Positions 13,048-45,423 of a stretch of DNA of 48,781 bases are shown here, in pieces. Position 1 is the stretch's first letter, and the number at the start of each line of letters is the position of its first letter. Location: assembly GCA_044892505.1 (NCBI GenBank), contig CM097882.1, positions 513,127,220-513,176,000 of the forward strand, given 5' to 3'. The notes under the pieces are model-generated. The model was not told the origin of the DNA, did no database searches, and saw only the letters and a list, made by a program, of their open reading frames with translations. The position numbers and the translations under genes were made by a program. This DNA comes from Schmidtea nova (lineage: Eukaryota).

Positions 13048-14039
13048 TACCCTGTTTTTTGGTTATAAGGTACGACCTTAGTAAACTTTAAAAGTTTTTT
13101 TTGAGCCCAAAGGTACCTTAGTAAAGAATGGTACCTTAGTATCAAGTGGAATCTTAGAAAAAAAACGGTAAAAAAATTTATATTCAGAAAATATAAAAAG
13201 TATTAAAAATTTTTATTCAAAAAATTCTACTTCCTCTTCACTAGCAAAGTTTTCTCCATCAAGAAATATATCAATAAGCTGATCACGAATATCATTATCA
13301 TCTTTTTCTTCTTCATCTTTATCATCCAACAATTCCTCAACCATTGGCTCATTAATATCATCCAACTCTTCTGTATAAAAATCAATGGTTGTCGATCTGA
13401 AACCATTTTTATTGCAGAAACTGGCACTGCCTTCCATGCCTCAGATATCCAATGACAAATCTCTTCGTAGGAAGCTCGCTTCATATTTCCAGACTTTGTG
13501 TATTCTTGATATCCTTTTACCATCCAATTCTCCCAATGACGTTGGAGATGAGTTTTAAATGATTTATTTACACTTATATCTAGAACTTGTAATTTTTTTG
13601 TTAAACCACCTGGAATCATACCAATCAGTGACCCAGCTGCAGTAAATTTAGATTTGACTTCATCAGTGCGATGACCAGGGGCAGAATCGATCATGATAAG
13701 TGATTTTCTATTGAAAAGCGCCATTTTTCTTTTCATCCAAACTTTTTCATGCCACAGCAGAGTTGCCGTTGAAGTCATTTGAGATTTTTCATTAGCTGAT
13801 ACGATTACATTTGATGGAAAGGAACCTGATGGAATTGTTTTTTGTCGAAAAATCACATAAGCTGGTAATTAGTATCTTAATTTTTTAAAAAAATTTTATT
13901 AAATATTATAACGTAGAATTAGTACCTTAGTAAAAAGTGGTACCTTTGTAAAGATGGTACAAAAATCGTGGGCTTTCAAAAACTTTAATAAAGTCGTACC
14001 TTAGTAGGAAGTAGTACCTTATAACCAAAAAACAGGGTA
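13048..14039 (-). mobile_element. pogo-family deletion derivative A (keeps DDE region and C-terminus)
   Basis: TIRs taccctgttttttggttataaggtac / gtaccttataaccaaaaaacagggta. ORF 13227-13856 has MIDSAPGH, IPGGLTKKLQVLDISVNKSFK. Confidence 0.92.
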
Positions 14040-14574
14040 TTTAATTACCAAAAATAGATTATTTTAATTTTTTTAAAGTTATTTCCTAAATTTAATAATT
14101 TTTAAATTACTAATTGTATTTTTTTTGTTCTTGATATATATTTGTTCTTGATTTTACAAATATGAGCCTGATTCTAACATTATTATTATTTAACGCTAAA
14201 TAATGATACTGTTACTACCTCTGTTATCATTGCGCCATCCTTTTATAATGAAATAACAATATGGAATTGAAGAAACAAAATAAAACAATTAATTCTTTAA
14301 ATTATCGATACAATTAGTATGCCTGATATCTAAAGTTCGCAAGTGTTTTGTGGACCTATATTGAAATATTGTAAGAAATTCCATGGAGATAATTCAAGAT
14401 TTCTATATTGTTCTAAGTTGGTAAGTGTCCGCAAACGTCAATTTAGTTGGACGTATTTTTTCTTCGATGCTTCAGGTTGTCTGATTCCAGTTTGAAATCG
14501 GTGTATATCGATCTGGACTCGATCCTGATCCTTCTGAAATTGATCGACGAATCTGTAAATGGATGAATGATTGC

Positions 14575-17645: not shown

Positions 17646-20600
17646 CAGGGCCGGATTTACACCTTTACGGTCCCCCGGCGCATTTTCAAAAATGGCCCCT
17701 CAAATATTATATTATGATGGTAAACAAAATCAGTAGAAATGATTTCAATTTGCATTCAAGGCTTAGTAAGACAATATCTAAACGATCAAACATGCATACA
17801 CTCAAAATGTATCAGTTGTGTTGTACAGCATAAATTTATGCTCCAGATAACAAGTTACAGACAAACACCAAAGTAATTTAGAAAATTGAGATTGTCAAGA
17901 AAGAACAAGTAATGTACCATAACTTTATAATGGTTTTCGGCGTGCCTTTTTGTCAGCAAACGTTTGAATGACACTATCAACATCAATAGACTGCATCAAA
18001 TCTGCCTCTATTTCCAGTAATGCCAATGCGCTCAACCGATCCTGGCTTTGAGTGGAGCGGAGATAATTCTTTAACTTCTTCAAACATGAAAATGACCTCT
18101 CTGCAGATGCATTTGATGACTACAATGTTAGGTATAGACGAAGAGCTAGAATAATGTTGGGAAAAGTATCCTAAAAAGGAAAGTGCAAAGACAAATGCTG
18201 CATAACTTATTCTGTATATTTTGAATAAAAAACAAACCTGTAAATTCAATAGCCTTCGGAATAATGAGATGGGATCCAACACACTATCATCGCTTTCCAA
18301 GAAGTATTTCATGTGGATTAGTTCATCTCCAATTTTTTCAACGTCTTCAGCATACACTGCATTCAGATTTGATGCAGCTAGATATAGTTCTTCATCTTTC
18401 ATCTGTCTCCAGCTATGTAGAAAGTCAAAACGGTCACGCAAAATTGTGTAATTGTTCATACGTTTAGTTAACTCAGTCAACAGGCGATCAATAATGACAT
18501 AGAATGTAGTAGTACGGAATTTATTACGTTGTGATAAGGATATTTCGTTCTCACTTATCTCATCAAATGCTCTTTTCCTAGACGGAACCCTGTTATTACG
18601 ATAATCAGCATCAACAAGTGTTTTGGCTTCCTCAAATCTGTCAAACTGTTCACGTATGTCACAGTTAAAATCGCAGAGAGACTCATATAAGCGAACAGAT
18701 TCCACAAGAGAAACAGTCACATTTTCGAGACTGTGTTGTTGCATCAAATCTTCTTAATACTATGTCTCAAATCACTGTCATTAACGACATCTCCGATTGT
18801 TCCATCTTTTCACCTAGACATGAAGCCTCATGTCCTGTTAAGTTATTCTCAGATTCGTCATCTGAAATTTCCTGTAAGCAGTTCATTATTTTCTTATAGT
18901 TTTTTCGGAGTAAATTGTTAGCTACTGCTCTTGCTGACCATCGAGTGCATGATAATGATGGCAAAGAAACACTAACATTGTCCAGAAGAATACACAATCG
19001 ATGTGTGGATGAAGAAAAATAAACAAACAGTTGTTGCAGTAAACCAAAGTAAATGACTGCCTGAGTACTGTCCATGTACTGCATTCAGCTTACAGCTACC
19101 AACAAGGTTAAGGGAATGGTTGCAGCATGGGACAAAATCAAACAAATTATTAAGAGATTCGATTCGGGCTTGAAGTCCACTGTATTTACCTCCCATATTT
19201 GCAGCATTGTCGAAAGACTGTCCCCGGCAGTCACTAATCGAAAGCTCCAGTTCATTCACAATGTTAAGTATCACTGATTCTAGTTCTTCAGAAGCATGGC
19301 TGATGATTGGACAAAACTGTATAAACCTTTCTATAATTTCGCCAGTTGAAGGCTTCACATAACGAAGGACAACAGATAATTGATCGACTTTAGACACATT
19401 AGGAGTTGAATCAATAATAAGAGCAAAATACTTGGTAGTCTTCGCTTCCTGTTTGATAATTTTTTCAGCTCTTCTCCCATGATAAAGATCAATTCTTCAG
19501 AAGTTGTTTTTGATAAATACGATGTCTTTCCACTTCCAGCATTGCTATGGTCTGGAATGTGACTAGCTAGGAATGGGTCAAATTCAGCTACGAGTTCCAG
19601 CGCTCCAAGGAAATTACCATTCTGATTGGAGCCAAATTCTTTTTCACCTCTAGTAGCAAGATATGGTACAACTGCCGTCACTCTTTTTAAAACATCACAC
19701 CAATACTTTTTCTGTAGATGGTAATGATGAATAACTTCATGATCCACACGACATTTTTCAGTCTTCCTCTTATAAAGTGTCATCAAAGCATTGCGGTGAG
19801 AGATACTATTTTCATGTTCAGAGATACTTTTGTGGCCATGTTTCCAATCATTAAAACCATCCAAAGAAAAATATGAAGGCTTCTGTGTAAACAACTGACA
19901 AACCCAGCAGAAGACAGCTCATCTTGTTGGCAAATATACCAAGAATGCACGTTGCACAATTTCACCATTTGGCATTTTACGTTGAAATAACCCTTCAGTC
20001 AAGTAACGAATTTTTGTATTTTTTGTCATTTGAGTATATTCGAAGAGACCCACTGAAGTCACCAATGTTTCTCTTAGGAGGCTGTTCAGTAAACCACTCA
20101 CGCAGTTTATCTGTTATTATCCATAACGCTGGCTCATCTCCAGACACAGATTCTTTGATTACACTCACTTGCTCATTATCATCTGTGCTGTGGGTGCTTA
20201 GGTATGGAAGCTTCTCAGAATTTGGTGACAAACACTGCTCAGTTTCAACTGAAATTTCAATTGTCTCTGACAAAAAAAGATTTTTCAGTTTCAATCACAT
20301 CATCAAGTTGGTTTCCTGACTCCTCGAGGATTATTGATTACATTTACTGTAAAGAATGAGGCCACTTTAGGTAGTTTACTCCTTTTCTCTTCCTGCTATT
20401 TTGTTCTTTTCACCTTAGCTGCACCGCTAAGAAAATTTCTCATGGTTGGATGGTTCGCTGACAATCCAGGTAGCCAAGCTCTGGAAAGAAAGTAAAACGC
20501 AGTAATATAGAGAAGAAAATTCCTAAGTTACATTCAGCTAAATATAATCAACGAAGAAAACATGATGTGCGATGAGGCAGTGAAATTATTTTCAGAAAAT

Positions 20601-21708
20601 CAGAATTAACTATAGTGGGTTAGTGAAAAAAATAGCAAGGCATGCACCAGACCTCATAGAAGCACGAGCCATAAGGATCATATGGGGAGTGGAGCCCATG
20701 TTTTTAGAAAATAATTTATAAACATTCCATATAGACTACCGTATATACTCGTGTATAAGCCGATCCGTATATAAGCCGAAGTGAGTTTTTATAGTCAATT
20801 TTTTGTCCAAAATCAAGTACCCGTATATAAGCCGAGGTAAAAAAAATAGCTAAAATCTGACGAATTATTTATGTTCTTTTCCATTTTTTGTTTAATTGGG
20901 TACTTTGAAAATATGTTGCGATGTCAAAAATTTCAAAATAACTGAATACAGAGAAGAGAGAATATTTAATTCACAAAAATAATAATTAATATAAAATTGA
21001 TTAAATAAATATTTTTAATCTTACAAGAGTGTTAAATTAAATATGATTTTTTAAATTAAAATTAATGTTTTTTTGGCTGGCAAAAAATATTGGTTTTTGT
21101 TACCCGTATATAAGCCGAATGGAAAAAATTGCCCAAAATTTCTCGGCTTATACACGAGTATATACGGTATATATTCTGATTTTTATGTTAGAATGGAACT
21201 AAAGAAAGCTCTATACTATGTGAAATACTTTATGAATAATATTGGACCTCTTGTTTTAATGCTAGAATGACCAGGAGGACATTTTTCTGCCTCTGTAATT
21301 TTTTATTCTTATTTGGGTGAATATTACAAGGCAGTTCTATGTTGCTGTTTCTTTAACTCAAAAATATTAGGAGTATTTGATATTAAAATAACTTTCATAG
21401 TTTTATTAAAATTTCGAAAATTTTTGTCTATTTTATTCTGCAGTATATATTTTTAATTTTAATAGTTCTGTAAAGCAACACAATTAAACATATTTACTTA
21501 CCTTCCAGATATATCTATAGGACAACTAAGAGAGCTTTTAACTTTCGGAGCTTCACAGTAATCACTGAAAACGTTAGGCTATGGAAAAATTACAGAGAAA
21601 GTCTACGATTTACATACTTATTATTAATTTTTTTATGAACAAGAGGCACCTTACCAGCATGAGGCCCCTGGCGGCTGCCCATTGCGCCCATGCGTAAATC
21701 CTGGCCTG
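17646..21708 (-). mobile_element. Full-length hAT element (TTF/ZMYM1-like transposase), degenerate
   Basis: TIRs cagggccggatttac / gtaaatcctggcctg; 8-bp TSD CTTACGAG / CTTATGAG. Frameshifted ORFs carry GFNDWKH, NGNFL, DQLSVVLRYV, GQSFDNAANM, CNHSLNL, TRWSAR. Confidence 0.93.
20737..21169. mobile_element. pogo-type MITE nested in the hAT
   Basis: TIRs taccgtatatactcgtgtataagccga / tcggcttatacacgagtatatacggta; internal tataagccga repeats. Confidence 0.9.
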
Positions 21709-22195
21709 CTTATGAGTCTTGTGATTCAGACTTTAAAAGACGATAAATGTTAACTGTAGATCACTTCATTGATAATTTTTAGATCTGCGCTTTTCAGAGG
21801 TTTCCGCTTATTCGATCTTTACCTTTTCTATCGATAATCAATAAATTTTCAATTTTCTCCAAATAGTTTCTCTTCGAACAAATAAGAATCTTAGGCTTTT
21901 CCAAATTGTGTCCCTCGTCCGATTTTACTTTCTTATTTATATAACTCAGTATGGTAATTAGTCTCTGCAAATTCTAAAGTTTTATTGCTTCAAATTACAA
22001 AATGCAATTTTTTTCTAATGTTACACAAAAGTGTTGTTTCTAATTTCGGAATAAATTTAGAACGAATTTATAATAATTGATATGTCGGTGTCTGTTCGTA
22101 TTTCTTGCAATACATTGTTTTTCGCTAAAATATTTTTTCCAATTAACATTTAAACTGCTGACCTTCATGTACCAAATTAATCTATATTTAGTAAT

Positions 22196-22250
22196 TATTA
22201 AGTTGTTCGGAATGAAATGTCACTAAATGGATTATAATTCCAATATGCGT

Positions 22251-22332
<82 letters not shown>

Positions 22333-23492
22333 ATTTATTATATAATCAAAATATGATCCATCAACAATAATACACTCTTGTCATCGTTGCGGGAGCTTTT
22401 CTATACCTTTTTTTAAAAAAAAATGTCTCATGTCTAGAGTCCAAGAAAGTTATAACTGTCGATTTTATCTCCTCCAAATCGTTGAACTTCCTGCCTTTGG
22501 TATAAAGACTTAAATATCTAAATTAGTGGAAATCAGTTGGTGATAAATCGGGTCAGAAGTTTGATGTAGTAGAACTTCAAATCTTAAGTCGTGTAATGTT
22601 TTTGTAGTTACTTTCGATACGCGAGGCCTGGCGTTATCATGTAGGATAATTGGACCTTTTCTATTAACAATTGCAGTTTGACTAATGGTGAGTTTTTCAT
22701 GCATTTGTTCTAGTTCAACACAGTATCGTTCAGAAGTGATTTTTATACCCATTTTCAAAAAACAGTAAGTATTACACCATACTTAAACCACCAGACTGAG
22801 AGCGTGACTTTCTTTTGGTGAAGTTCCAGTTTTGGAAACTGATTTGGGCATTGATGTTTATCAAACCGTTCTCCTGGCCGCTTATGATTATCATATTGAA
22901 TCCATTTTTCATCCCAGGTAATAATATTATTTAGAAAAGATGACTTTCATTGTCGTGTTTGAAGAGATAAGCAAGTTTGTAATCTGTTTAATTTCTACAA
23001 TTCAGTCAATTCATGTGGGACCAGTTTTAGGGCTTTTTGACCATACCAATTGTCTTTAAATTGTCATGAAATGTTGATTTTGAGCAACAGTTTCACGTAA
23101 ATCTTCCTCCGACAGTTTGATATTGGGTCTACCGCGATGCATATTTTCTACACCAATTTCTCCGCCATCAAATGTTTTAAACCAACTTCTTTCATTAACT
23201 GTATCGATCCCAAAAGTATTATTAATATTCTTCTCCGCCTCAACTGAATTGTTCTTCGATTTCCAATCATATAAATAAAGAAGTCTCAAATCATGATTTT
23301 CTAACTTGTACATTTCTATTTGAAAATGAAATTTATACTAATTAAATTATTATAAATCTTATTAATATTTGAATTTGAAATAAGCGCTTTCTGATGAACT
23401 TTAAAATAAAGAAATTCGTTTTATATAAAAAAGTTATGATGATTTAAAATTATTATATATTATTCGGACATTTCATTCCGAACAACCTAATA
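22196..23492 (-). mobile_element. Full-length mariner element, defective
   Basis: TIRs tattaagttgttcggaatgaaatgtc / gacatttcattccgaacaacctaata; HTH ORF 23056-23313 (RGRP motif) and ILHDNARP in ORF 22510-22758. Confidence 0.92.
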
Positions 23493-23643
23493 TTCAAAAT
23501 TTAATTTACTAAATTTATTATCCTAATTATTATATTTATAATATATATTTATTACTATTATTACTTCTATATTTATTATTTTTCTCTATCTAAAAATATT
23601 AATTTTTAATCACTATTTGGTGATTTCTGGCTGATGGTTTTTC

Positions 23644-23832
23644 GCGTCTGTGTGCGCGTAGTTAAAACCTTGAGTTTTATATGCGTCTGTGTGCGCATTG
23701 CCGGTTAGAAGGTTTCGCGTCTGTATGCGCGTTGATGTTTTATATATGCGTCTGTGTGTGCATTTCTGATTGTTAAATTTTGTCTCGCATCCGTGTGCGC
23801 ATTGCTTCTTCAGGTCTCGCGTCTGTGTGCGC
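23644..23832. repeat. Array of six 14-bp GCGTCTGTGTGCGC motifs with variable spacers
   Basis: Copies start at 23644, 23683, 23717, 23748, 23787 and 23819 (periods 39, 34, 31, 39, 32). Confidence 0.9.
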
Positions 23833-24004
23833 ATTGTTGGTGAATTATTTTTATTGAAAGATAATTCTCATTTTTTAATTTATTTTTAGAACAGTTGGTT
23901 GTTTTACTAGATCTTTTTTTAATAATTAATCGAGTAATTGGGATAAATGGATTTTTAACTCTCGGATTTGGAAATTTTATCTTGGTGGTATTTAAATTTG
24001 AAAG

Positions 24005-24780
24005 ATGGACAAAATTAATATCAATATGATGTGTTATGGTTCAATGGTAAATGATTTATTGAATGAAACCGATATCGGGACGGATTATGACAATATGAAA
24101 AAAGCCACCGCAAGTTTCATTCGTAGATTCCATGGGAATTATTTCAATTCAAATGAATGTCCTCATTATCTTCGTGACTTAAATAAGACAATCGTGTTAA
24201 TGTTTTCGCGTGTCTCTAGCGATAATCCACCTGAAGATCGCTTCAAACTTTGAAGCTCAAAGTATATCTAAATGGAAATTTCCGTAGATTAATGGCAAAA
24301 GAAAATCTGCGGCGATCGCTATTTTCTCACCATCAATTTATTTCATTCTCTATATACAGTTCTGGCATTAAGTGGTTCATTCTCATCTTGGCGAAGAAGC
24401 ATTATTTGCAACAATTTACATTGTTTGGATCGACTCATGTGACACTGCTAATAATATGCGCTTCTTCGCATTTGATGATTGACAATTTATTCAATGGATT
24501 TTCAATGAAAGTTTCTAGAAAGTTATGTAATGATATTATGACAAATATGGTTGGGTTTTTCGTTGGAAGTAGTAATTTAATATTCAGAAATTTTAATATT
24601 CATTGTCAAGTTTCTAGATAGATATTTGGAGAATATTTTCAGTAAATTAGAGAAAGAATTGAAAAATTTGAATTTTATTTTAATGAGAAATTGTTAAAAT
24701 TTCTAAATTCTAACAGAGGGAAAGTCCGTCATCTTGGATCAACCGAAATAGCTAAATTTCGGCAAACTCACTAATTGAAT
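24005..24780 (+). other. Degraded coding-like region of unknown origin
   Basis: 82-aa and 123-aa ORFs plus broken frames with protein-like composition; no family recognised. Confidence 0.25.
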
Positions 24781-25132: not shown

Positions 25133-27220
25133 CAGGGGCGTAGCTAGGGGGGGGGCGAGTTGCCCCGGGCGCCGAAGAGGAAGATACAGTATATTCATGC
25201 TAGACTAACTCTCTCTCAAAGTTTGCGTAAGATGCAAGAAAAACAGTAGTTTCCTTCCTTGCATCAGGATGTCGTCCACAGTCTAGTTGTATATCTGTTG
25301 CTTCAGTCCATTTAGTTGTTCTGCAGCATCAAACTTGTTAGGTTCTTAGGAAGGGAGAGAGCCATGTCACTCATGTGTTTCATTTCAAACCCATCAGGCA
25401 CAGATCTCCGGCTCAGGCAAGGTGGAACTTGGTGACCCCTTCATGCTCCAGCCACCAGTCATTTCACATCGTTGACGTAGAGCCAATGTTTTGAAAGCTG
25501 CTCTTGCTATCTAGAACGTCTGTGCAGCACACCTTGCCCACGCCGTGTGGGAACATGGGCATGGCCTGCTGAACAGACGGTCTAGATAGATAGTATAGGA
25601 GCCTCATCACCGCTCTGCCTCAGCCTCTCTTGAAAAAGTAATCACTGAGAAACTGGATTCTGACAACTTACCTCTAGAAGATTGTAGATCACAATGTTAT
25701 GATAATGCGTCTGTGATGACAGGGCATATATCTGGTCTTCAACAAAGAATCTGTGCCCGAAATCGACGAGCTGTGTTTGTCAACTGTGACAATCATAGTT
25801 TGAACTTGGTTGGAGTTCATTCAGCCAAACAAGATGCGATCGTTGTAACCTTTTTTGGAACGGTCGAAAGTATTTTTGTTTTCTTTTCTCGTTCTTCAAC
25901 GCTTCGCTGGGAAGAGCTAAAGAAAGCAATACCTATCACTTTGAAGCGGGAATCAGAAACCCGGTGGAGTGCAAGAGTGGAGGCCGTCAAACCAATCTTC
26001 GAAGGATTAACTGAACTTGTGGAACTGCTAGAGAAACTATCAGATGACAGAAATCAGACAAATGACACCAGAACTGATGCAGAAAGGTTGCTGCCGTGTA
26101 TTCTGGACTTCAATTTCCTCGTGCTACTTTATTTCTGGAACACAATTCTACGAAAAATTGATCAAGTTCAAAAACGTCTTCAAGACCCCACCATGAATTT
26201 CAAGGATGCAGCGTCTGATCTGGATGCATTAGAGAAAAACATCAACTTGGAGCGCGACGATTTGTGTGAAGGCGCAATTAACAGTGCAAAGATCAGATGT
26301 GCAGAATGGGGAGTGGAAATTCAACGACGAACAAGAAGGAAACGCATGCCTGGAGAGTTGGCACGGGATGCCGGGCTTTCAGCTGAAGAAGAGGCATCAC
26401 GAGTTATGAAAGGTGTGTTGGATAGATTTCAACAGGAACTAACAACGAGATTCATTCGTCTCACTGACTTAAACTCAAAATTCGGATTTTTACTGGATGT
26501 TAAAAATCTCACCAAGAGCGATGATTTGGATATTCTTCGCGCAAATTGCTTAGATCTAGCTATTTTCTACGACACAGATGTTGATGGAAGAGAACTATTC
26601 AACGAAATATGCGACTGCAAAATGCTGCTAAACGCGAGAGGTGATACTTTACCATTGACTCCCTTGGAACTCATTTCTTTCATTGTGTCATATGGTGATG
26701 ATGTTTTTCCAAACTTGCGCATTGCTCTGCAAATTCTTTTAACAATTGCAGTATCAATAGCCAGTTGCGAGCGTTCCTTCAGCAAGCTGAAGCTAATACT
26801 CTCGTATCTTAGAGCATCTATGGGTCAGGATCGTCTTTCTGATCTTGCACTGCTAAGTGTCGAGAAGGAAACAGCTGAAAAAATCGACTTCGATGATATT
26901 ATTAACAAATTTGCAAGCATGAAGGCGAGAAAAATAAATTTGGTATAACGTACGTTTATTATCATGATAATTTTAAGAATGAATGGGCCGTTGTTATAGC
27001 TTGTAACTCAACTGTTGGTTAGGCAAAGTACTGTAACGAACACGGACATTTTTTCTGCGTCTGTAATACTCTGTATATAGATTAAAATAAAAATTCGTTT
27101 CACTTGAAATGGCTTCAAATTGTGTTTAACTTTTACTTCTTCATTGCAACGGGGGAGGCCCGGTGGGGCGCAAAATTTATAGTTTCGCCCCGGGCGCCAA
27201 AAACCCTCGATACGCCTCTG
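25133..27220 (+). mobile_element. hAT element, 5'-internally deleted, young
   Basis: TIRs caggggcgtagctagggg / accctcgatacgcctctg; TSD tgtgaaa(a)c / tgtgaaac; subterminal gccccgggcgcc at both ends. Confidence 0.9.
25713..26948 (+). CDS. hAT transposase C-terminal ~2/3, uninterrupted ORF
   Basis: In-frame CRSQCYDNASVM just upstream, then CDNHSLNL, ETRWSAR, and the SIASCERSFSKLKLI..MGQDRLSDLALLS dimerisation domain. No N-terminal zinc finger or first catalytic Asp. Confidence 0.9.
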   Translation: MMTGHISGLQQRICARNRRAVFVNCDNHSLNLVGVHSAKQDAIVVTFFGTVESIFVFFSRSSTLRWEELKKAIPITLKRESETRWSARVEAVKPIFEGLTELVELLEKLSDDRNQTNDTRTDAERLLPCILDFNFLVLLYFWNTILRKIDQVQKRLQDPTMNFKDAASDLDALEKNINLERDDLCEGAINSAKIRCAEWGVEIQRRTRRKRMPGELARDAGLSAEEEASRVMKGVLDRFQQELTTRFIRLTDLNSKFGFLLDVKNLTKSDDLDILRANCLDLAIFYDTDVDGRELFNEICDCKMLLNARGDTLPLTPLELISFIVSYGDDVFPNLRIALQILLTIAVSIASCERSFSKLKLILSYLRASMGQDRLSDLALLSVEKETAEKIDFDDIINKFASMKARKINLV

Positions 27221-28049: not shown

Positions 28050-28800
28050 TTGTAAAAAGTCGAAAAGGACATTATAACATTTATTGCGATTTCTTAAAGC
28101 TGTCCGTTGTTAATTTGAATATTATCAATTTATTTAACGCTCGAAAATATAAATTTAATCTTTTTCTTTTTTATCATACACATGCTATCGATGTATTCCA
28201 TGGAGAATTACAATTTTTTTTAATTCTTTGTGGCTGTATTTCTAGATACGCTGGCTGCATTTGTGGTTTTATTAAAATCGGTTTTTCTGTTGTCATTATT
28301 GTGTCTTAAAATATTTGTTTTGCCAATGTCTCATTTATTTGCCAATAAAGCTTTTATATTCTTTTCAACTAAAATAAATATTTCTGGCTATTAATTCTTA
28401 GAACTTCCATGGTTCTCTTAAATCTCATAACGTCACTTACTTCCCTATCATACTATGCATCTATTATTCAAATATCTTTTCCATTATTATTTATGAATTT
28501 TTTTTCGTTCTGTTCCTCTACTTTCCTTCGAATTTTCAGCTAAATACAAAATTCATTTATAAGATTAGTTCTTGCAATTATCTATGGATATAATTTTTTG
28601 CTAGTTTAATTTATTCATAGTCAATTGAATAGTAAGTTTCCCTATTATTTATAATGGGCTACCGTTTGAACAGCTCACTACACCACTCTGATTTTTTATC
28701 ACTATTCCTTAATTTATTGACCATCTCTTTTGCTCCTGTATCTAAAAGACAGATTCTCCATATTTTTCAAATATTCATACTTGGTCTACCTCCCACATCT
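28050..28800 (-). pseudogene. Gypsy pol fragment (protease and start of RT)
   Basis: CLLDTGA (~28732-28750), NSPWNTSIACV (~28180-28210), FRALNKL (~28126-28146); many stops. Confidence 0.75.
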
Positions 28801-29099
28801 TATTATATTCTATTTTAATATTATTACTGTTGAGGATACCTAAATAATAAAATTAAATAACATCATAAATAAATAAAATAACTTTTAATAAAGTAAAAAG
28901 GAAATCAGATGAGAAGATATTATTTTATGCTGTCAAATGTAAATTTAAAGAAACTTAACTCTTTGAAAGATAAAATAATTTTAGCTATTGGTAGTATACA
29001 ATTGTAGTACATGCTAATTGATGTAAAAAGGTATCCGAAATAGAATATCAGCTGCGATCGAAACAAAATAACATACATTGAATAAAAATTTCAAAAAAT

Positions 29100-29690
29100 C
29101 AAACTCCATTAGGTTTTATTTGTAACCGCAGTTTTAATAAGTATCATACCATATATCAAGGAATGAAAATTAATCTTTCTTATACAGTCAATGAAGTGCC
29201 TATTGTTGGAAAAAATCGATGTATACTCGACTTTTACCTTCACTGTGTGGTTATATCATTTCGAAATAAACAGATAAAATGGAAATCAATAATCTACTAA
29301 ATCCATTTGAATCATTCATTACTAAACTATGAAGAAAAATGTATATGTTGCTTGATAATTAGCAGCAAATTACAAATATCCTTTGAAAATTAGACAACAT
29401 GATCTTCAAATAAATGCAACACAAAATTTTTTTAATTTAATACAAATTCGTTCTGGACAAGAGTGGAGAAACTTTATTGAAATTGAACCGATGATAAACG
29501 AAATTCATGTATATTTGAAAGCAAAAAACAGCAGAAAGTCAGAGTTATTTTTCAGAACCATACGATTGAGACATTGAATAATAGAACATTTTTGTCAAAT
29601 ATGAGAATTTACAAGTAAATCTCATTTACAGTCTTTCTATATCTTATTACGAAAATCTTTACGATAATGGAACATATATGAATAATCAAT
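29100..29690 (+). pseudogene. env-like accessory ORF, copy B
   Basis: Hydrophobic VLFVTAVLISIIPYI, then KIDVYSTFT..YH, MEINNLLN, NYKYP, IEPMINEI, FQNHTIETLNNR, YYENLYDNG; colinear with 35650-36450. Confidence 0.6.
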
Positions 29691-29899
29691 AGACAAAAGT
29701 GCAAACTCAATACGAAAAAAATATCTCAGTAATGAAATGGATCGAGTTCAAATAGAAATCTATAATAACGAAGTTTTTGTTTCACTATTATAGGAAACTA
29801 TTATAAGAAAAAAAGAAGCCGAACGGAGAAGGATAATGTAATAGAAGAAAATTTGAAGGTCCTAAATTGGACAAGAACTTGGGATGAAAAAATGAGAAT

Positions 29900-30219
29900 A
29901 TGCGTGGTCGGAATTGAAAGAAATTCAATAATGAAGTTATCAGAACTACTGGTTAGGAAAAGGGAAGAACATTGGTAAATTCATATGTAAAGGAATGGTA
30001 GAAACTTTAGAGAATGATGGAATAGTGTGGAAAATGATGCTAAATAAGTCATCATGGAAAATCAAAAAAGAAAATTGGCGTAAACTAATGAGAGTAGCAA
30101 ATGGAATTACTTGGATGGTCTTCGAATGCCGAATAAAAACTGCAACAAGTTTCGTAATATTGCGAATTCTGACCATGGAAGAGGAAAACAGTTTACTACC
30201 AATAACGAAAACATGTTAA
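29900..30219 (+). pseudogene. Unknown accessory ORF-X, copy B
   Basis: KGMVE...SSWKIKKENWRKLMRVANGITWMVFE is colinear with ORF 37264-37602. Confidence 0.55.
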
Positions 30220-30249
30220 AATATCGAAAATCATTTATACAAAAGAATA

Positions 30250-30520
30250 TGTCTAGCGAAGAAATTAGAAAAAACATCATATTTATGTATGCTGAATATG
30301 GAATAAGCGAAGAAAACCGAATGATCTCTTAAACAATTTGTCTTATGGGGTATACTGGGAGAATATTATATAATTCGTTAATAACACCAAAGGACAAACT
30401 CAAAAATTACGGACGCAAATTCATGGAATCACGGAAAAAATAAAATTGATGTCAGGAAATTTTTCATATGTAAAGACACATTAACCGATAAGTTGTAACA
30501 GGATGGAAACAGGAAAAATT
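30250..30520 (+). pseudogene. DEDDh exonuclease relic, copy B (truncated)
   Basis: EEIRKNIIFMYAEYG (ExoI Asp changed to Tyr), TICLMGYTGRII, QIHGITE (30416-30436). Confidence 0.65.
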
Positions 30521-31209
30521 AACCATATAAGTTTATAATGGGCATCTGCAATCAATATGGTTGATGTTGACGCTAGGTTTGGTAACCACCAAATACTTCA
30601 AAAATCGAAATTTGGGTCATTAATAGTTTTTTCGATATTGTCATCATCTATGGCAGTTTGTTTACTATCATCCTTATCATAAGATTATTAGTAAGATATT
30701 TGTTGAGCCCAGTCGAGTCACCAGTTTACAGTGTTGGAAAGGTCTGGGGTAAATGCTATGTAAGTGTGTGTGTGTGTGTGTGTGAATGATTGTCTGTTTG
30801 TGTTTGTACACTAATAATGACAATTAACAAATAACAAACTATCTAAAATTACAATCTTTATTAAAAAACGTTAAATTCAATACTGATGATTTTAATTAAG
30901 ATAATGTTAAGGTAATTTTATAATCCTTCTTTGAGTTTCCTTGTCTTATTGTCTTAATTTTATTTCTAATTTCAATTCTTCTAATTCGAAGGGAAAGAAA
31001 ATTTAAAATAGTTTATATTCAGCTTGTTCGATTTTTTTCTTGATATTTTAATTTCTTTAGTTTTATAATTTGTCTCTAATTATATCTATTTCTATTGATT
31101 TTTTTCGTATTTGAGTTTTTATTATAATTTTAATTATTTTTAAAATAAAATAAATAAAACACAAACAACACATAGTAAACAAAAAATAAAAAATTGAACA
31201 CTTACAATC

Positions 31210-34170: not shown

Positions 34171-34759
34171 CTTCTACAATCTATAATTAAAATTTATTTT
34201 TATTTTAATTGACACCGTGGTTCTTATCCTGTTAGAAATTTTAATATCAAATAAGAAATTAGAAAATAAATACAGATATTACTAATGCCTTTAAATACTT
34301 TCAGTTATAAAGTTCAGGAAATTTATCAAAATAGTCAAAACTCCACACATAATTTCTATACAAAACCCCGGACTTTTGTTTCCCTATTCTGCATACTCAG
34401 CTAATTCGGTCGACGGGAATGACAATTGCTTTTAATAGAAAATCGCTTTCGTTTCCCTTTCCGTTACTCAAGCGTGCTCCTACTGCGAATTTTCAATCCC
34501 TCTATTGTTCAAACTCACATTAAATTTCCTGTTTGGAATTTAAGTGTCTTTTTCCAACAATAAGTTCCGGATTAGTTGTATTAAAGGGACTAACGCTTAA
34601 ATCTTTAGACAACTTAGAACAATTAAGTACGCAAATTTGCTAAACAAAAGGTTTCCGCTTTCATATCTTGAACTATTAAACTGTAAATTTCAGCGTATCG
34701 ATAGATTTCCCGATTCGCTTACGCTTAGACAATTTTTTATTGATTATTATAAACAATAT

Positions 34760-35080
34760 TATTTGGGTTTAATGAAATTAGTAAAATAGAAAGCATAAAA
34801 ACTTTGTAAAAATCAATAAAAATATAAAATTTTAAAAGCAATAATTAAATCAAGGAAATTAATAAAAAAGTTAGAAAATTTAAAAATAAAGATTCTGCGG
34901 GGAAATTGGTATGGGTGTATGCCGAATTGAGACGAATCCTAAAATGGTAAAATAAAATTAAGGGGTCCCCAAAAGAAAAGAATTAAAAAGTAATAAATTA
35001 ATTAATTGGCTAATGGGAAACCCGATATAATAGAGAACCTGAGTAGTGTGGGAAACCGGACAAAAATAATTAGCCATGGA
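34760..35080 (+). mobile_element. Partial LTR (5' part), family L1
   Basis: Homologous to 44580-44890 and 48578-48781 (shared ggaaattggtatgggtgtatgccgaa block); preceded by ATAT. Confidence 0.7.
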
Positions 35081-35084
35081 ACAT

Positions 35085-35600
35085 TGATTAATATGATATC
35101 GTCGTATATGAATAGAAAACAAAGACCGATTTATTCATTAAGCAATATTTGTTTGCGTACAGAAATGCAGTGAATGAATATACCGGTGAAACACCTTTCT
35201 ATCTCATGTATCTACGAAGAAACAATATGCCAATTGATCTGAAATTAAAATGTCACTGATTTCTCAATATATGGATGTATCGGATTATAAAGTGATTATA
35301 CAAGATAGACTGCAGAAAGTATGGGTCTAAGCTGGACTCAAAATAAAACACCAGCAAGAAGTATATAAGGAATGCTACGATAATCGCGCTCATGCACTGA
35401 TATCAAAATTGGAGATTTAGTGTAAATGATTAAACCAGAGCCGGCAAAGGAATTATCAACAAAATTGCAGCGACCGTTTAAAGGACGATACTTGGTATGT
35501 GATACTACAGAGACTTATTTGAAATTACGACCACAGAATAATAAAAAAGATTGGAACAATAATTGTTCACGTATATCGATGCAAAAATCTAAAGACGGGG
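35085..35600 (+). pseudogene. Gypsy integrase C-terminus with GPY/F-like module
   Basis: LFAYRNAVNEYTGETPFYL (35150-35206), IKIGDLV, LSTKLQRPFKGRYLV. Confidence 0.85.
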
Positions 35601-35649
35601 AAGGAGCAGTGAAACAAAAATTTACAAAAAATCCAGCTCCACTAAATTA

Positions 35650-36450
35650 TATAAATAAAGTTTTATTTATTTCAACAATAATGATGCTAAATGTTTTGTA
35701 TATGAGTTCAGTATAAGTCTTTCCATTGTATGCAACAAAAAGAATCACAATGATAAATAAAATTGACAAATATGCGACATGTACCTAGATCGTATAGGTT
35801 TATCATTGTGAAAGGACAGAGGAAATTGAAATAAATAATTTACTAAATTATTTCGAGCCCCCAATAACACTAAATTATAATAAAAACATCCACGTTGCAC
35901 GTCAGTTGACAATGAATTATAAATATCCGTGGTTAATAACCCAATTAAATTCGACTGAAAACACTACAAAAATATATAATATTGTACATCTCGATGTTTG
36001 CACAAAAAGGTTAGAGAATGGTGTCTTGATTGAACCCGTTATAAATTGAATTAATCTTAATTGGGAACCACGAGAAACCCACCAAGTAAAAACTGTCTTC
36101 CAGAATTATGCTATAAACACGTTGAATAGCAGAAAACCCTTTATAAACTATGTTTATTTCAAATTATTTCAAACATATAATATTTTGATTCGTTATTATG
36201 AAAAATCTTTATATGACAATGGAACTGCTGCTGATAGTTTGTGGATTGAAAATCATTCTACATAACAAGTGATAACATTGATAAACGAACCGAGTTCAGT
36301 TCTATATTTGGAATCAGTTAATAAATATTACTTGGTTGGCAGACCCAAAATCAAAAAGCTGTTATATACTATTGCGGAAAAATTCAGGCAATCTTAAACA
36401 CTAATAATAAATCTCAGATATTAACCTTTCAACAACTACGATCAAAATTA
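35650..36450 (+). pseudogene. env-like accessory ORF, copy A
   Basis: Directly follows integrase; hydrophobic VLFISTIMMLNVLYM start; EINNLLN, NYKYP, IEPVIN, FQNYAINTLNSR, YYE-NLYDNG. Confidence 0.6.
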
Positions 36451-36663
36451 ATGTCAAAATTTGTTCATGAAAATCAAATATTATCGCCACACACTATCTA
36501 TGGCGAGTGACTTGAGTAGAGGACAAAATCTTTTTTGATAACGTAAACAACAGTGATTCAAATAAATTATATCAATATCAGCTGACAACGCTTCTTACAG
36601 AGTTAAGCGTTAATATAAATAGGTTAATGTATATAAGTTATGAATTAATATGTATAGTTTATG

Positions 36664-36711
<48 letters not shown>

Positions 36712-36740
36712 TTATGAATTAATATATGTATAGGTTATGA

Positions 36741-36779
<39 letters not shown>

Positions 36780-37263
36780 TTATTATGCAATATATATATA
36801 GGCTATAATTAATAAAGACAACTACCATCTATGTTTTTATTTTATTACATACTGCATTCGAATGGAAAAAATATAAAATTAATGATATAACCAACAGAAT
36901 AGAATAATAGTAAAAATTTACTAAAATTGCTCCCCATTAAAGGCTTTATCCAGATATAACCTCATATGGCCATAGAATTCGTCAAATACAATGCCTGCAT
37001 CATCGTTTATCTCTGATATCGCAATTTGGACATTGACAGCTATAGGTAAGACAATATCCTTCGGGCTCTCATCTCAACCATAGCTTCAAAAATTAAATTT
37101 ATCAAACGTTAATCGTAAATATTTTAGAAATGGAGCAATTCAACGGGCAAGGGCGAATGCTATAGCTACGCAAAACTTCAAAGGAATCATGCAGGGCAAA
37201 AAATTCAAATAGAAGATAATTTAAAAATCCCAAATTGTTTCAGAATAGATGAAATAAAAATGC

Positions 37264-37602
37264 ATGAAACTACACCGGAATATGGGAATGAGACTAACTG
37301 ATGAAATTCAAATATCCAGGAAAGAAAAATATCATCTGCATATCATTAAAGGGACAGAGGAAATAATGTACGGGCAACGTCAACCGCCGATGGAATTAAA
37401 GAAATTATCATCTTGGAAAATTCACAAAGAATTTATGGCTAAACCAATACGCGCAGCAAATGAAGAAACTCTCATTGCTTTGGAAACAACAACAGAAAAT
37501 GAACCAAATGAGAGACCATGCATGCTGATAACGGAGAGCCAGGATTCAACAATTATGCAGATCTTAGAAAAAAATATTGAAACAAAAATTATCATTTCCT
37601 AG
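37264..37602 (+). CDS. Unknown accessory ORF-X, copy A
   Basis: KGTEE...LSSWKIHKEFMAKPIRAANEETLIALE; homologous to copy B. Confidence 0.55.
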   Translation: MKLHRNMGMRLTDEIQISRKEKYHLHIIKGTEEIMYGQRQPPMELKKLSSWKIHKEFMAKPIRAANEETLIALETTTENEPNERPCMLITESQDSTIMQILEKNIETKIIIS

Positions 37603-37609
37603 GAAAGAC

Positions 37610-38060
37610 ATGGACCTCAAAGAGGTTCGCAACAAAATATTATTCGTTGATGCCGAGTATGACAGTTTGGAAACGATGCAAATCATTCCCTTATCGGTGG
37701 CTTTGATGAATTACTATGGGGAAATAGTCAAAGCTGTATATTTTACCCTAAGAGGAAGAATTTCAACTCAAAGATCCATGTGATCACCGAAGTGGCAAGC
37801 AGGAATCAACACGATCAATATTCGGAAATGAAGTATATCCAGAGATTTACGGCGGGGAACCTATTTATAGGTCATATCTCACATGCCAAATTACACTATC
37901 TGGGAATACGGATAGACAAACTTTATGGAAACTACAAATTCTAGAACGGGAAATGTGTGAGGAAGAAACTCAGGTCGGATACATTCTACTTTAGAGGATG
38001 TGAAAACCATAATACACCTTCGGGTAGAAAACCAATGGATCGATGACATAGTGATTCCCA
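37610..38060 (+). pseudogene. DEDDh 3'-5' exonuclease (REX4/ISG20/DnaQ-like), copy A
   Basis: ExoI ILFVDAEY (D 37649, E 37655), SVALMNYYGEIV, KIH(V)ITE, LFIGH (~37864-37875), ExoIII HSTLEDV (37982-38002); frameshifted. Confidence 0.8.
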
Positions 38061-38629
38061 GAAACAGCCGTCAAAGAAATATTCTGTGAAAGAATATAAA
38101 AATTTACAGGCTAATATATCAAAGCCAAATGAGGAAATCAAATCGCAAAAGTTGGTACAAGTCCCGGAGAAAACTGCTATGAAAGATATTCACTTGACAT
38201 TTAAACACGTAATAATGACAGAGATTGATGTTCCTTCTACTGAACTTAGTTGAGCCACGGAAATAATTATGGAATCAATGGTAGACAGCTTGGTATTATG
38301 TATAGTTATTATTGTTTAGTATTGTTTAATGTGTAAATTGCTGTGTATTGTCTAGTGTTGTTTAATGTGTAAATTACTGTGTAAATGGAAATTATTGAAG
38401 GGCCCAAAAGAGTCTCCCAGAACTTATTATGGGGGCAATTGGAGTGCTGGTTTTGTTTGTGGAAGAATGTATGCGAGTATGTAAGTAAACAGATTTTACA
38501 TATATAACAAAATATTTAACACGAACTATTAAACACAATTTTTATTATTACGATAACGAAATGTTAAAAATGTAAATTAATCTAACTCTGAAATTGGGTC
38601 GAAACTTTCTGGGTAGTTGGGATTGTTAA

Positions 38630-38860
38630 TTTTAGGCTTGTATGGCTTTTTAAACTTTCTTGGATTTTTCTTATCTTCAATTTCTTTTAATCTTTTTAAT
38701 TTTTAGGCTTGTATGGCTTCTTAAACTTTCTTGGATTTTTCTTATCTTCTATTTCTTTCGACTTATTTTTAAAATTACATCTTTAATTTTTTAGGCTTGT
38801 ATGGCTTTTTAAACTTTCTTGGTTTTTTTATCTTCAATATCTTTCGACTTATTTCTTTTA
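38630..38860 (-). repeat. Three imperfect tandem repeats encoding a Lys-rich peptide on the - strand
   Basis: ttttaggcttgtatggctttttaaactttcttgg at 38630, 38701 and 38789; - strand reads EDKKNPRKFKKPYKPK. Confidence 0.8.
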
Positions 38861-39201
38861 ATTTTAATTTTTAAGGTTTTTTTCTCATTAACTGTTCTTG
38901 TTGGCTTGGATTCTGTTACTATATTTGATTATTATTTTCCATTGTTAAATTAGTTTTATTTCCAATTGATTTTTTTTATAATTTATAATTTGTGATTCGG
39001 CTTACTATAGTAATTTACTATAGCAAGCCAAATTCAAATTTATAATTTGAATTTTGATAATTATTATGAAAAAAACCCATACACAAAAATAAAAATTAAC
39101 AACAAAGGGGGGAAATAAACTACAGGGAAAAAGAAACCACACAAATCGTGAACATTACACTTGGATACAATAACAACCATAGATATGGTAAAACTTTAAC
39201 T

Positions 39202-40173
39202 TACCCTGTTTTTTGGTTATAAGGTACGACCTTAGTAAATTTTAAAAGTTTTTTTTTTGAGCCCAAAAGTACTTTAGTAAAGAATGGTACCTTAGTATCA
39301 AGTGGAACCTTAGAAAAAAAGCGGTAAAAATATTTATACTCAGAAAATATAAAAAGTATTAAAAATTTTTATTCAAAAAATTCTACTTCCTCTTCACTAG
39401 CAAAGTTTTCTCCATCAAGAAATATATCAATAAGCTGATCACGAATATCATTATCGTCTTTTTCTTCTTCATCTTTATCATCCAACAATTCCTCAACCAT
39501 TGGCTCATTAATATCATCCAACTCTTCTGTATAAAAATCAATGGTTGTCGATCTGAAACCATTTTTTATTGCAGAAACTGGTACTGCCTTCCATGTCTCA
39601 GATATCCAATGACAAATCTCTTCGTAGGAAGCTCGCTTCATATTTCCTGACTTTGTGTATTCTTGATATCCTTTTACCATCCAATTCTCCCAATGACGTC
39701 GGAGATAACCCATTTCTTCAAATGATCCTCCAATGCTGGCCATTGAATGGGTCGAATTCTCTTTACTACTTTTGCATTTTTATTCCCAATCGATTGCAGA
39801 AGATCTTTTTGTTTTTTCCATCGCTTGATGAGGTTAATGTGACAACCATAATGTTCAGCTGCTTTTGAAATGGATGAATTCAAAGCATAATTCACAGCAG
39901 CTTCTTTAAATTGTATTGTATATGTTTTTCGTTTTTTGTCTGCCATTTTTCAATTTGATTTGAATTTGTTAAATTAATTATATAATTAAACAATATTATT
40001 GATTTATTATTAGTATCTTAATTTTTTTAAAAATATTTTATTAAATATTATAACGTAGAATTAGTACCTTAGTAAAAAGTGGTACCTTTGTAAAGATGGT
40101 ACAAAAATCGTGGGCTTCCAAAAACTTTAATAAAGTCGTAGGGAGTAGTACCTTATAACCAAAAAACAGGGTA
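39202..40173 (-). mobile_element. pogo-family deletion derivative B (keeps N-terminal HTH and C-terminus)
   Basis: Same TIRs as 13048-14039. ORF 39674-39946 (KRKTYTIQFKEAAV..IKRWKKQ..WPALEDHLKKWV) is joined to RRHWENWMV. Confidence 0.92.
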
Positions 40174-40480
40174 GTTTGGAATATGGCCCAATTCCCAAAG
40201 AGAAAACGGACAGGAAAATAAAAGCAGATTCATTCATCAAAGTTAGCCAGACTATATCATACAACGGCCTGATTTATGAACGATAGGAAACGATAGTCCG
40301 ATATAAACATGGATCCAAGAGAAAGGAAATCAAAATGGATTAACTGAAATTTATTAATTTATATATGAAGTATCTATAATATAAATAATCGAAAATTTAT
40401 TGTTGATTCGTCTTCTTTATTAGGGCAGCTCACCAGTTAAACCCTGTAGTAAACTTTAATTTTCATTCATATTATTACTA

Positions 40481-44404: not shown

Positions 44405-44579
44405 NNNNNNNNNNNNNNNNNNNNNNNNNNNNNNNNNNNNNNNNNNNNNNNNNNNNNNNNNNNNNNNNNNNNNNNNNNNNNNNNNNNNNNNNNNNNNNNN
44501 NNNNNNNNNNNNNNNNNNNNNNNNNNNNNNNNNCATATAAATGATCAAAAGATTGGAGGTCGAATCTAAATTAAAGGTA

Positions 44580-45423
44580 TGTTTGGGTTTATTGAAATTA
44601 GTCAAATACAAAAATAGAAAGCATAAAACTTTTTAAAAATCAATAAAAAGATATAATTTTAAAATCAATAATTAAATCATGGAAATTAATTAAAAAGTTA
44701 GAAAATTTTTAAAATAAAGATTCTGCGGGGGAAATTGGTATGGGTGTATGCCGAATTGTGAAACAAATCCAAAAATAGCAAAATAAAATTATTGGGGATC
44801 CTCAAAAGAAAAGAATTAAAAAGTAATTAATTAATTAATTGGCTAATGGGAAACCCGAGCCAATAGTAGTGTGGAAACTCGGACAACGATAATTAGCACT
44901 GAGCAAATTGAGGTCAAAAGAAAACCCGAGAAGCATAATTAACGAAGGTATAATTAATGTATTATTTTAATTAAAGTAGTTAGGAAATGACAACTAGGAG
45001 ACCCGCCAGACAGCCTGCTAAGGAAAACCTATTAAAACTATCAGTATATAAATGATACGAAAATCCCAGAAGTTGCCAGGGTGGCAAAAAAAGCAGGTGA
45101 ACAAATTATTTAACAGAAAGGTCAAACGAATTACAAAGGAAAGTTAAGCGAGGAAAACAAGGGAAAGTTAAATATATTCTTCACAGTGGATCAGAAGGGG
45201 AGATCTTCCATTGGGAGACGTATCCCCACGCTTAATCGAAAAGCAGTTCCAAAATTATTGTGAATTTTTACAGATACTTGTTGTTGTCAGAAATTTTATC
45301 GAAAAATTGTATTAACTATAATTTCAAATAAATATTTCTGTGTCGGGTTATTTTTGTGAATCAATCTTAAGAACACTGAACTGTCAGATAGATAATACCG
45401 ACTTAATTAATAAATACCCAACA
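44580..45423 (+). mobile_element. Complete LTR (844 bp), family L1, probably a 3' LTR
   Basis: TGTTTGGG...CCCAACA termini, TATA-like cagtatataaat (~45042), purine-rich ggaggtcgaatctaaattaaaggta just upstream, followed by ATAT. Confidence 0.75.

Follow-up and report, generated by a model that had tools for sequence, protein, structure and literature searches.

Two dead 3' accessory cassettes of errantivirus-type elements in Schmidtea nova, with a predicted second glycoprotein and a cupin–ISG20-like reading frame

Two decayed copies in the window

Two related stretches of decayed coding sequence lie on the + strand of a 48,781-nucleotide piece of the Schmidtea nova genome (contig CM097882.1, positions 513,127,220 to 513,176,000), here called the window. 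We refer to them as copy A (from 28890) and copy B (from 35076). Both are riddled with stops and frameshifts, and neither retains a long open frame. Each is a dead fragment from the accessory region at the 3' side of GAG-ENV-POL Ty3/Gypsy elements, long terminal repeat (LTR) retrotransposons of the errantivirus type. In intact relatives, assigned with the window copies to families A to F, this region encodes a predicted membrane glycoprotein behind the integrase (IN) and a separate second open reading frame (ORF2) that joins a cupin domain to an ISG20/REX4-like exonuclease.

An earlier note on this DNA had described a three-module cassette whose motifs recur in the same order about 6.5 kb apart, and this recurrence is borne out. 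By eye, all eight motif pairs that it listed are found in both + strand translations (28800-31000 and 34800-38400) in the order given; in the 36.2-kb copy the reading of one motif is two residues off, and the downstream copy had been listed first. A tblastx comparison of 28500-31000 with 34500-38600 shows significant colinear similarity in 11 same-strand segments (joint E=5.4e-21, best single segment 46.9 bits), compared with a best E of 2.4e-4 and a best segment of 32.2 bits among 30 codon-shuffled controls. The last segment, at 30753, is low-complexity and probably spurious. The note had also placed the similarity mainly at the amino-acid level. Default blastn of the window against itself indeed fails to pair the copies, but relaxed blastn recovers 61% identity over 622 nucleotides (nt; 29081-29673 versus 35613-36225, E=2e-38) and 58% over 474 nt (29840-30300 versus 37208-37661), so the likeness is not confined to the protein level. 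That the two copies are not a recent duplication is supported.

Copy A opens with the end of a gag-like ORF typical of a pol-less, non-autonomous lineage (28890..28997; 81-83% nt identity to family C and loci L144 and L146), which runs into a remnant of the IN C-terminal tail and linker (28998..29112) that is matched from 28998 by the A-lineage copies L156 and L047/48. Module 1 (29113..29782, tblastn) is decayed and keeps a signal-like segment and the N-terminal part of the ectodomain, with stalk, transmembrane (TM) segment and tail deleted; it aligns to the family B post-integrase protein at 22% over 245 columns with 11 stops and to L156 at 34% over 155 columns with 6 stops. Module 2 (29787..30170) is the decayed N-terminal cupin, or double-stranded beta-helix, domain of ORF2, 44% identical to family C and 27% to family B. 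Module 3 (30180..30441) comprises a linker and the first half of the exonuclease, with a degenerate ExoI motif and an end before ExoII. Env, protease (PR), reverse transcriptase (RT), RNase H (RH) and the IN core are absent, and nothing in copy A matches the IN core. The RT and IN domains that the note had supposed to be linked to the cassette are thus missing here; the gag-side piece adjoins the IN tail as in pol-less elements, to whose lineage copy A is assigned. Decayed A-lineage copies with Env, RT and IN are present elsewhere in the genome (RT-RH 73-83% identical to family B).

Directly upstream of copy B lies an LTR fragment of the same element group (34774..35063; 70-74% nt identity to the LTRs of families B, D and E), followed by the C-terminal half of the integrase (35076..35590; tblastn with the family B polyprotein, 81% nt identity over 35076-36591). 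Module 1 (35591..36704) has a signal near 35660 and an ectodomain with stops and frameshifts (64% over 311 columns with 8 stops). Beyond it comes an (AT)n run; the TM segment and tail were not recovered. The broken ORF2 (37122..38292; 42-64% identical to family B ORF2, 7 stops) comprises a T-rich acceptor-like AG, an ATG at 37130, the cupin and exonuclease domains and the start of an acidic region. It is split by one or more later insertions (38293..40154), which include a DNA-transposon fragment also found at 13047-14042, and resumes with its C-terminal end and the start of the 3' non-coding region (40155..40475; 68% over 62 amino acids (aa), 76% nt). A polypurine tract (PPT) and LTR pieces at 44550-44864 and 45170-45423 (71-73% nt identity to the family B PPT and LTR) form a probable 3' LTR (44550..45423) that we attribute to copy B. 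Copy B is assigned to family B as an old member, split by a microsatellite and a later insertion.

Parent elements and their two accessory genes

A search of the 1.25-Gb genome (283 contigs) gave 658 candidates for the DNA of copy B module 1, and 180 and 179 for the two halves of copy A, while the exonuclease protein drew 2,208 and the ectodomain 1,549; these are first-look counts, with only 40-150 scored per search. Of the 150 ectodomain matches listed, 33 lie in open frames of 3,381-3,402 aa. In family B, the LTR pairs are 99.1-99.8% identical in four of six stretches, and the elements have TG..CA ends, a primer-binding site, a PPT, 4-bp target duplications, a 3,402-aa ORF1 and a separate ORF2. 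Families D and E have the same anatomy (LTR pairs 99.2-100% identical in 5/6 stretches). Intact elements measure 15-17 kb, or 14.9 kb in family F, and their ORF1 3,393-3,449 aa. We take the primer-binding site to be tRNA-Trp-like. The relatives therefore show the hallmarks of Ty3/Gypsy elements (TG..CA LTRs, primer-binding site, PPT and short target duplication), of which the window copies keep LTR fragments only.

ORF1 holds a Gag that carries CCHC knuckles. Pfam searches place a class III fusion glycoprotein (PF24664, Monjiviricetes_fusion; E=3e-83 in family B, 3e-69 in family F) between it and a Pol whose PR-RT-RH-IN order is confirmed. Flatworm errantiviruses are reported to have this same GAG-ENV-POL arrangement. 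ORF1 continues in frame for about 430 aa beyond the integrase; ORF2 occupies a separate frame that starts 0.2-0.55 kb past the ORF1 stop and runs 467-487 aa from its ATG. In other words, the three modules of the earlier note belong to only two genes, since module 1 closes the Gag-Env-Pol polyprotein in frame at its C terminus and modules 2 and 3 form one ORF. Elsewhere in the elements, about 560 aa of extra domains lie between the CCHC knuckles and Env in family B (L029:600-2250). By eye, two stretches there look ubiquitin-like and the end BCL2-like, but Pfam and PDB sequence searches were negative. The PR-RT spacer, conserved and 217 aa long, resembles dUTPase by eye only, with Pfam and PDB sequence searches again negative. 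Between ORF2 and the 3' LTR, families B, C, D and E carry a largely non-coding, microsatellite-rich stretch of variable length (2-9 kb; in family B, positions 21075-24541 of the concatenated L049+L029+L030), which family F lacks.

The family B polyprotein has four hydrophobic segments, of which 1081-1110 and 1645-1676 bound Env and 3004-3029 and 3343-3381 bound the post-integrase region. From hydropathy and sequon counts, this region spans about 320 aa with seven N-glycosylation sequons, and a tail of some 25 aa comes after it. Module 1 is thus predicted to be a second type I glycoprotein behind the integrase, with signal, ectodomain, TM segment and tail. A short tyrosine/acidic tail end is conserved in families B, D and E and in the metagenome contig L208. 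For the ectodomain, an FN3 identity is a lead rather than a result. Atlas returned an FN3 score of 0.93, with ten of its ten best matches FN3, at a recognition below the trusted level. The best domain against a hidden Markov model (HMM) of host FN3 domains scored 5.1 bits in family B, which none of 300 shuffles reached, and 6.6 bits in family D (reached by 2/300); whole-sequence scores were no higher than the best of 1,000 shuffles. Repeats 2 and 3 of the ectodomain resemble each other weakly (E=0.001, probability 21%).

The exonuclease is more firmly placed. ORF2 matches Pfam RNase_T (E=5e-6 to 8e-4), human ISG20L2 (E=3e-11) and ISG20 (E=8e-9), and the top structural match of its exonuclease model is ISG20 (Z 11.8, root-mean-square deviation 3.5, 149 aligned). 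D-x-E at ExoI, Glu at ExoII and H-x4-D at ExoIII occur in 8/8 own-genome ORF2s of alignment A2, and catalytic D, E, H and D are invariant across the 31 hand-chosen sequences of alignment A4; at ExoII, outside homologues have Asp or Glu, a conservative change. Families A-E have the ExoI and ExoIII motifs and an RNase H-like fold; in family F these motifs are degenerate. Judged from these matches, the middle of ORF2 is a DEDDh exonuclease of the REX4/ISG20 group, closest to ISG20L2 and ISG20, and in families A-E (D-E-E-D-h) it may be active. A Pfam RNase_T scan of the genome, which would miss intron-split genes, found one host gene that we read as ERI1-like and no clear REX4 donor.

The first ~127 residues of ORF2 were modelled as a double-stranded beta-helix (block predicted local distance difference test (pLDDT) mostly 68-87, one block 55). 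The model of residues 1-130 matched cupins, ALKBH/AlkB-type proteins and vaccinia C16 at Z 8-9.4, middling values that do not resolve the subtype. Because only a single His is conserved (29/31 sequences), we regard this domain as a degenerate cupin and not an AlkB enzyme. An AlkB or 2OG-Fe(II) demethylase, or a metal cupin, was rejected, as neither HxD..H nor HxH..E..H metal ligands are present. A T-rich AG stands 2-6 nt before the ORF2 ATG in families B, D, E and F and in window copy B; such an acceptor-like site just ahead of the start suggests that ORF2 may be made from a spliced subgenomic RNA. Four sequence-run contigs have no bearing on expression, as X1, X3 and X4 carry the transposase adapter ends of DNA libraries and no splice-like joint is listed. 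Taken part by part, the identity of the cassette's components is held with high confidence.

Relatives, selection and exchange of the cassette

An index-free profile search with ORF2 retrieved 1,502 proteins with E<=0.001, of which 39 reach E<=1e-30; word-indexed homologue searches returned nothing for ORF2, for the post-integrase protein or for that region within long polyproteins. We built a quick exonuclease tree from the best 150 profile matches and our own copies, dropping rows below 130 residues. Among its 141 domains, 65 rows including all own copies stand apart from 76 REX4-like rows (Shimodaira-Hasegawa-like approximate likelihood ratio test (SH-aLRT) 98). A second exonuclease tree was labelled from the first, and its grouping is not independent. 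One origin of the ORF2 nuclease from a REX4/ISG20-like gene would fit the trees.

Of twenty clusters that we looked up, nearly all consist of unnamed metagenome or assembly proteins; one is found on contigs whose length reaches 17 kb, as large as an entire element. A metagenome scan gave 13 loci, comprising ten short contigs with an element-type ORF2 and three weak matches; 11 of the 13 were examined, and context was informative in L207 and L208 only. In L207 a gag-CCHC ORF lies close to the ORF2 homologue, and L208 keeps the layout, with a signal-ectodomain-TM-tail ORF upstream of ORF2. The remaining outside ORF2 homologues are probably also of element origin. A scan of viral contigs found no relative. 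The metagenome relatives carry short coiled-coil ORFs between membrane protein and ORF2 (L208:1773-3058, L209:588-1166, L207:226-699), as a duplicated pair in L208. One further protein, P0043 (1,113 aa), has long acidic repeats behind a degenerate element-type exonuclease and could be a domesticated or giant-element version.

Within the tree, a 13-row subclade has lost the catalytic residues, and a member of it led us to family F in this genome (77/77 scored matches). Family F consists of 14.9-kb elements with LTR pairs 99.0-100% identical in 3/3. Its 3,449-aa Gag-Env-Pol, 56% identical to family B over RT-RH, ends in a signal-ectodomain-TM protein of its own, and its 654-aa ORF2 is degenerate at ExoI and ExoIII. 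The post-integrase proteins of family F and L208 would be homologous to that of family B by position and topology only.

Selection was measured on individual intact natural copies of families B, D and E, compared in pairs by Nei-Gojobori counting; synonymous divergence (dS) is at or near saturation, and the ratios of nonsynonymous to synonymous divergence (dN/dS) are therefore approximate. Between families, dN/dS is 0.02-0.03 for RT and IN and 0.05-0.07 for Env, and well below 1 for the ectodomain (0.15-0.20, 282 codons) and the cupin domain (0.09-0.23); the exonuclease has a nonsynonymous proportion (pN) of 0.15-0.18 against a saturated synonymous proportion (pS) of 0.82-0.84. Stalk, TM segment, tail and acidic region are much freer (about 0.3-1.2, few codons). 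Compared segment by segment with intact relatives, ectodomain, cupin and exonuclease give 0.28, 0.15 and 0.09 in window copy B and 0.14, 0.30 and 0.09 in copy A. All parts of the cassette are under purifying selection between families. The earlier note had supposed a cassette kept under selection in at least two families; at least six (A, B, C, D, E and F) in fact carry it, and the selection holds for the active ancestors and relatives, but both window copies are themselves dead. Its view of the cassette as functional rather than a one-off capture stands as far as selection in several families goes, but a single ancient capture stays compatible with the data.

The pol-less lineage has a young member of 10.5 kb, family C (LTRs 96-99.8% identical, 3/3), with a shortened module 1. 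Its ORF2 is open to its end at 24 of the 30 best-scoring loci, a biased sample. Against older pol-less copies, the gag-like ORF has a pS of 0.10-0.14, compared with 0.39-0.51 for the cupin and 0.72-0.76 for the exonuclease part of ORF2; therefore, the cassette was swapped into family C by recombination. We did not accept selection on ORF2 inside the pol-less lineage, as autonomous donors may be where its low dN/dS arose. The gag-like ORF of family C (L035:6795-8258) is 488 aa long, lacks a Pfam match in its C-terminal two thirds and has dN/dS of 0.5-0.8 against most older pol-less copies. An ORF of 180-210 aa, which carries a duplicated Cys motif and a hydrophobic segment towards its C terminus, adjoins two C/A-lineage copies (L036:5915-6544; L154:1-549, - strand).

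The window as a whole is an AT-rich eukaryotic repeat landscape with DNA-transposon fragments. By our own reading, a 449-aa open frame at 25599-26948 (+) is the C-terminal part of a hAT-like transposase, and other hAT, mariner and pogo-like fragments lie at 448-1131, 13227-13868 and 17983-19918. At 48578-48776 the start of a young family B LTR (93-94% nt identity) appears, and this further insertion may run past the window end.

Proposed roles and known systems

Given topology, domain identity and selection, which are shown or strongly predicted, we propose the following roles, in which processing, splicing, partners and substrates are conjectural. The hydrophobic segment after the integrase would act as an internal signal peptide, like the segment before Env, and would lead to release of a type I glycoprotein with roughly three beta-sandwich (FN3- or immunoglobulin (Ig)-like) domains in fixed ratio to Env. 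This second glycoprotein may serve as an attachment or helper partner of the gB-type fusogen in cell entry. ORF2, likely translated from a spliced subgenomic RNA, may in families A-E act with its nuclease on element RNA, or on RNA that would otherwise feed PIWI-interacting RNA (piRNA) or double-stranded RNA (dsRNA) sensing. Because one successful young family lost its catalytic residues, RNA binding rather than catalysis may be the conserved core of ORF2, and the intact nuclease, or the dead fold in family F, would shield the element from piRNA or dsRNA defence. As a whole, the reading of the two stretches as dead cassettes for an Env partner and an RNA-binding or RNA-trimming antagonist of host defence seems to us evenly poised between right and wrong. 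The Env-partner role taken alone is tentative, and the counter-defence role of ORF2 is equally so.

Several observations count against these roles. The post-integrase ectodomain has no Pfam, PDB or database homologue, and the Atlas recognition of FN3 stays below the trusted level. The host-FN3 HMM score is not above shuffles in family E (58 of 300), L208 (25) or family F (173), and the AlphaFold model is all-beta with pLDDT 36 and Z of at most 5.6 to Ig-like folds, which makes the fold search uninformative. The post-integrase proteins of family F and L208 have no significant sequence similarity to that of family B. The ectodomain evolves much faster than Env (0.15-0.20 versus 0.05-0.07), as fits a host-facing protein and not a tight structural partner. 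Family C has no clear acceptor before ORF2. Family F and the 13-row subclade have lost catalytic residues, which speaks against an essential nuclease step but tells us nothing positive about defence. Finally, rotifer DEDDy ORFs, as reported in PMC5408684, have no clear link to copy number.

The best-surviving alternative, though we consider it unlikely, is that the post-integrase protein is a host-receptor mimic or decoy, derived from a captured piece of an FN3 receptor and acting at the cell surface, where it would interfere with signalling or prevent superinfection. FN3-like features, fast evolution and the conserved tyrosine/acidic tail end of B, D, E and L208 would fit such a role, as would the shortened signal-TM version of module 1 retained in a family C copy that lacks both pol and env. 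Counter to this, the protein lies in frame with Env and Pol and so would be made in fixed ratio with the particle proteins, and no donor was found among the 26 host FN3 domains used as profile.

A little less likely still is that ORF2 is a replication helper unrelated to host defence, which trims the 3' ends of element RNA, tRNA primer or cDNA intermediates in the particle. REX4/ISG20L2-type enzymes trim structured RNA, an activity also named in a PDB title, and lineages that share only some 35% identity all keep the catalytic residues. The same role has been proposed for the rotifer DEDDy ORF3s (PMC5408684). Yet ORF2 lies outside Pol with no obvious route into particles, the young high-copy family F transposes despite a degenerate active site, and pol-less family C keeps ORF2 open, at most of the best-scoring loci in that biased sample, although such elements borrow their enzymes in trans.

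Neutral cargo, kept only by linkage to active elements, is very improbable. The catalysis-free family F would suit it, as would the very close D/D2 pair, whose ratios are 0.3-0.9 (0.7-0.9 for ectodomain and cupin) on few changes; such high values are expected if selection has hardly acted yet on recent differences. In comparisons between families, however, all three modules have a pN far below pS and the frames remain open though synonymous sites saturate, which largely refutes it. Least credible of all is an old local duplication as the source of copies A and B, which lie on the same strand 6.5-7.4 kb apart but are refuted as duplicates by their family assignments, since ORF2 of A is nearer the A/C lineage (44% versus 27%) and copy B nearer family B (81% nt), A is pol-less and B has an integrase, and the sequence between them is unrelated. 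The unequal offsets (6,547 nt in module 1, 7,361 nt in module 3) arise because copy A lacks about 0.8 kb, TM segment and tail included. By a rough estimate, the closeness of the copies needs no special cause, because about 2,200 candidate copies in 1.25 Gb give about 25 pairs within 7 kb by chance.

Returning to the proposed Env partner and defence antagonist, a broader picture can be drawn, which we offer as speculation and consider unlikely. The flatworm gB-type errantiviruses would be complex, virus-like elements with accessory genes of their own: an FN3-like glycoprotein cut from the Pol end as the attachment partner otherwise missing for a fusogen of herpes-gB type, and a captured ISG20/REX4 nuclease joined to a degenerate cupin as an RNA-defence antagonist, enzyme or dead RNA-binding decoy by lineage, swapped between autonomous and pol-less elements.

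Among the nearest known systems are the platyhelminth GAG-ENV-POL errantiviruses of HSV/gB type, especially Smed_errantivirus_1 (Chary and Hayashi, PMC13524379), which likewise are multi-copy and young and place a class III fusogen Env between Gag and Pol. By eye, 49 of the first 60 residues of its Env stretch (supplement file 3) equal those of family B, a closeness that points to a planarian host. The main text of that paper contains no exonuclease, a term search of seven supplement files finds no exonuclease, DEDD or fibronectin, and the abstract, section 11 and early parts of sections 5 and 9 mention no post-integrase membrane protein. Herpes gB needs gD/gH/gL, and the entry of gB-type errantiviruses is described there as unexplained (PMC13524379). 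The element class itself is catalogued; for its cell entry, stated to be unknown, the cassette names a candidate fusogen partner.

The giant planarian Gypsy element Burro/GYPSM1 (PMC6431247) similarly has a single huge ORF1 with Gag-CCHC, extra domains, an in-frame Env before PR and a conserved PR-RT spacer. It exceeds 30 kb with an ORF1 of 4,900 aa, compared with 15-17 kb and about 3,400 aa here, and its BIR, MATH and ankyrin features have no Pfam match in our elements. For the ubiquitin-like and BCL2-like domains before Env and the dUTPase-like domain between PR and RT that Burro is described to have, our elements offer the by-eye resemblances given above. The review PMC6431247 lists no exonuclease or second glycoprotein for it. 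In the literature covered, we found no account of a DEDDh/ISG20-like or cupin ORF, nor of a post-integrase glycoprotein, in these elements; the Burro 2018 primary paper and Repbase, outside our scope, may annotate them. In-frame Env and the accessory DEDDy nucleases of rotifer LTR elements are already known.

Cellular REX4, ISG20 and ISG20L2 exoribonucleases share fold and ExoI/ExoIII motifs with ORF2. The element sequences differ from them in forming their own group (SH-aLRT 98), in having Glu at ExoII in many members and in their N-terminal cupin, and one subclade lacks the catalytic residues. The arenavirus nucleoprotein, whose DEDDh exonuclease serves immune suppression (PMC7968707), offers a functional precedent for counter-defence, by analogy only and with no sequence relationship seen.

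A further parallel for ORF2 is the DEDDy ORF3 of the bdelloid rotifer Juno/Vesta LTR elements and Terminons (PMC5408684). Both are stand-alone accessory 3'-5' exonuclease ORFs downstream of pol, with Glu as the third acidic residue (DEED). Rotifer ORF3 is RNase D-like and sits in elements mostly without a true env (PMC5408684), whereas ORF2 belongs to the DEDDh REX4/ISG20 group, is fused to a cupin and sits in env-bearing elements. An RNase D-like DEDDy identity does not fit ORF2, which has His at ExoIII and ISG20 and ISG20L2 as best matches. With ORF2, LTR elements have independently acquired a DEDD nuclease for a second time, in this case one whose family also includes an antiviral restriction factor. 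No test has addressed why certain LTR elements come with nucleases (PMC5408684), and the cassette offers a natural series of active-site-intact families, a pseudo-nuclease family and a pol-less family that retains ORF2. In this host group, piRNA control can be switched off by RNA interference (PMC8532177), and the questions of the fusogen partner and the nuclease become testable with single proteins.
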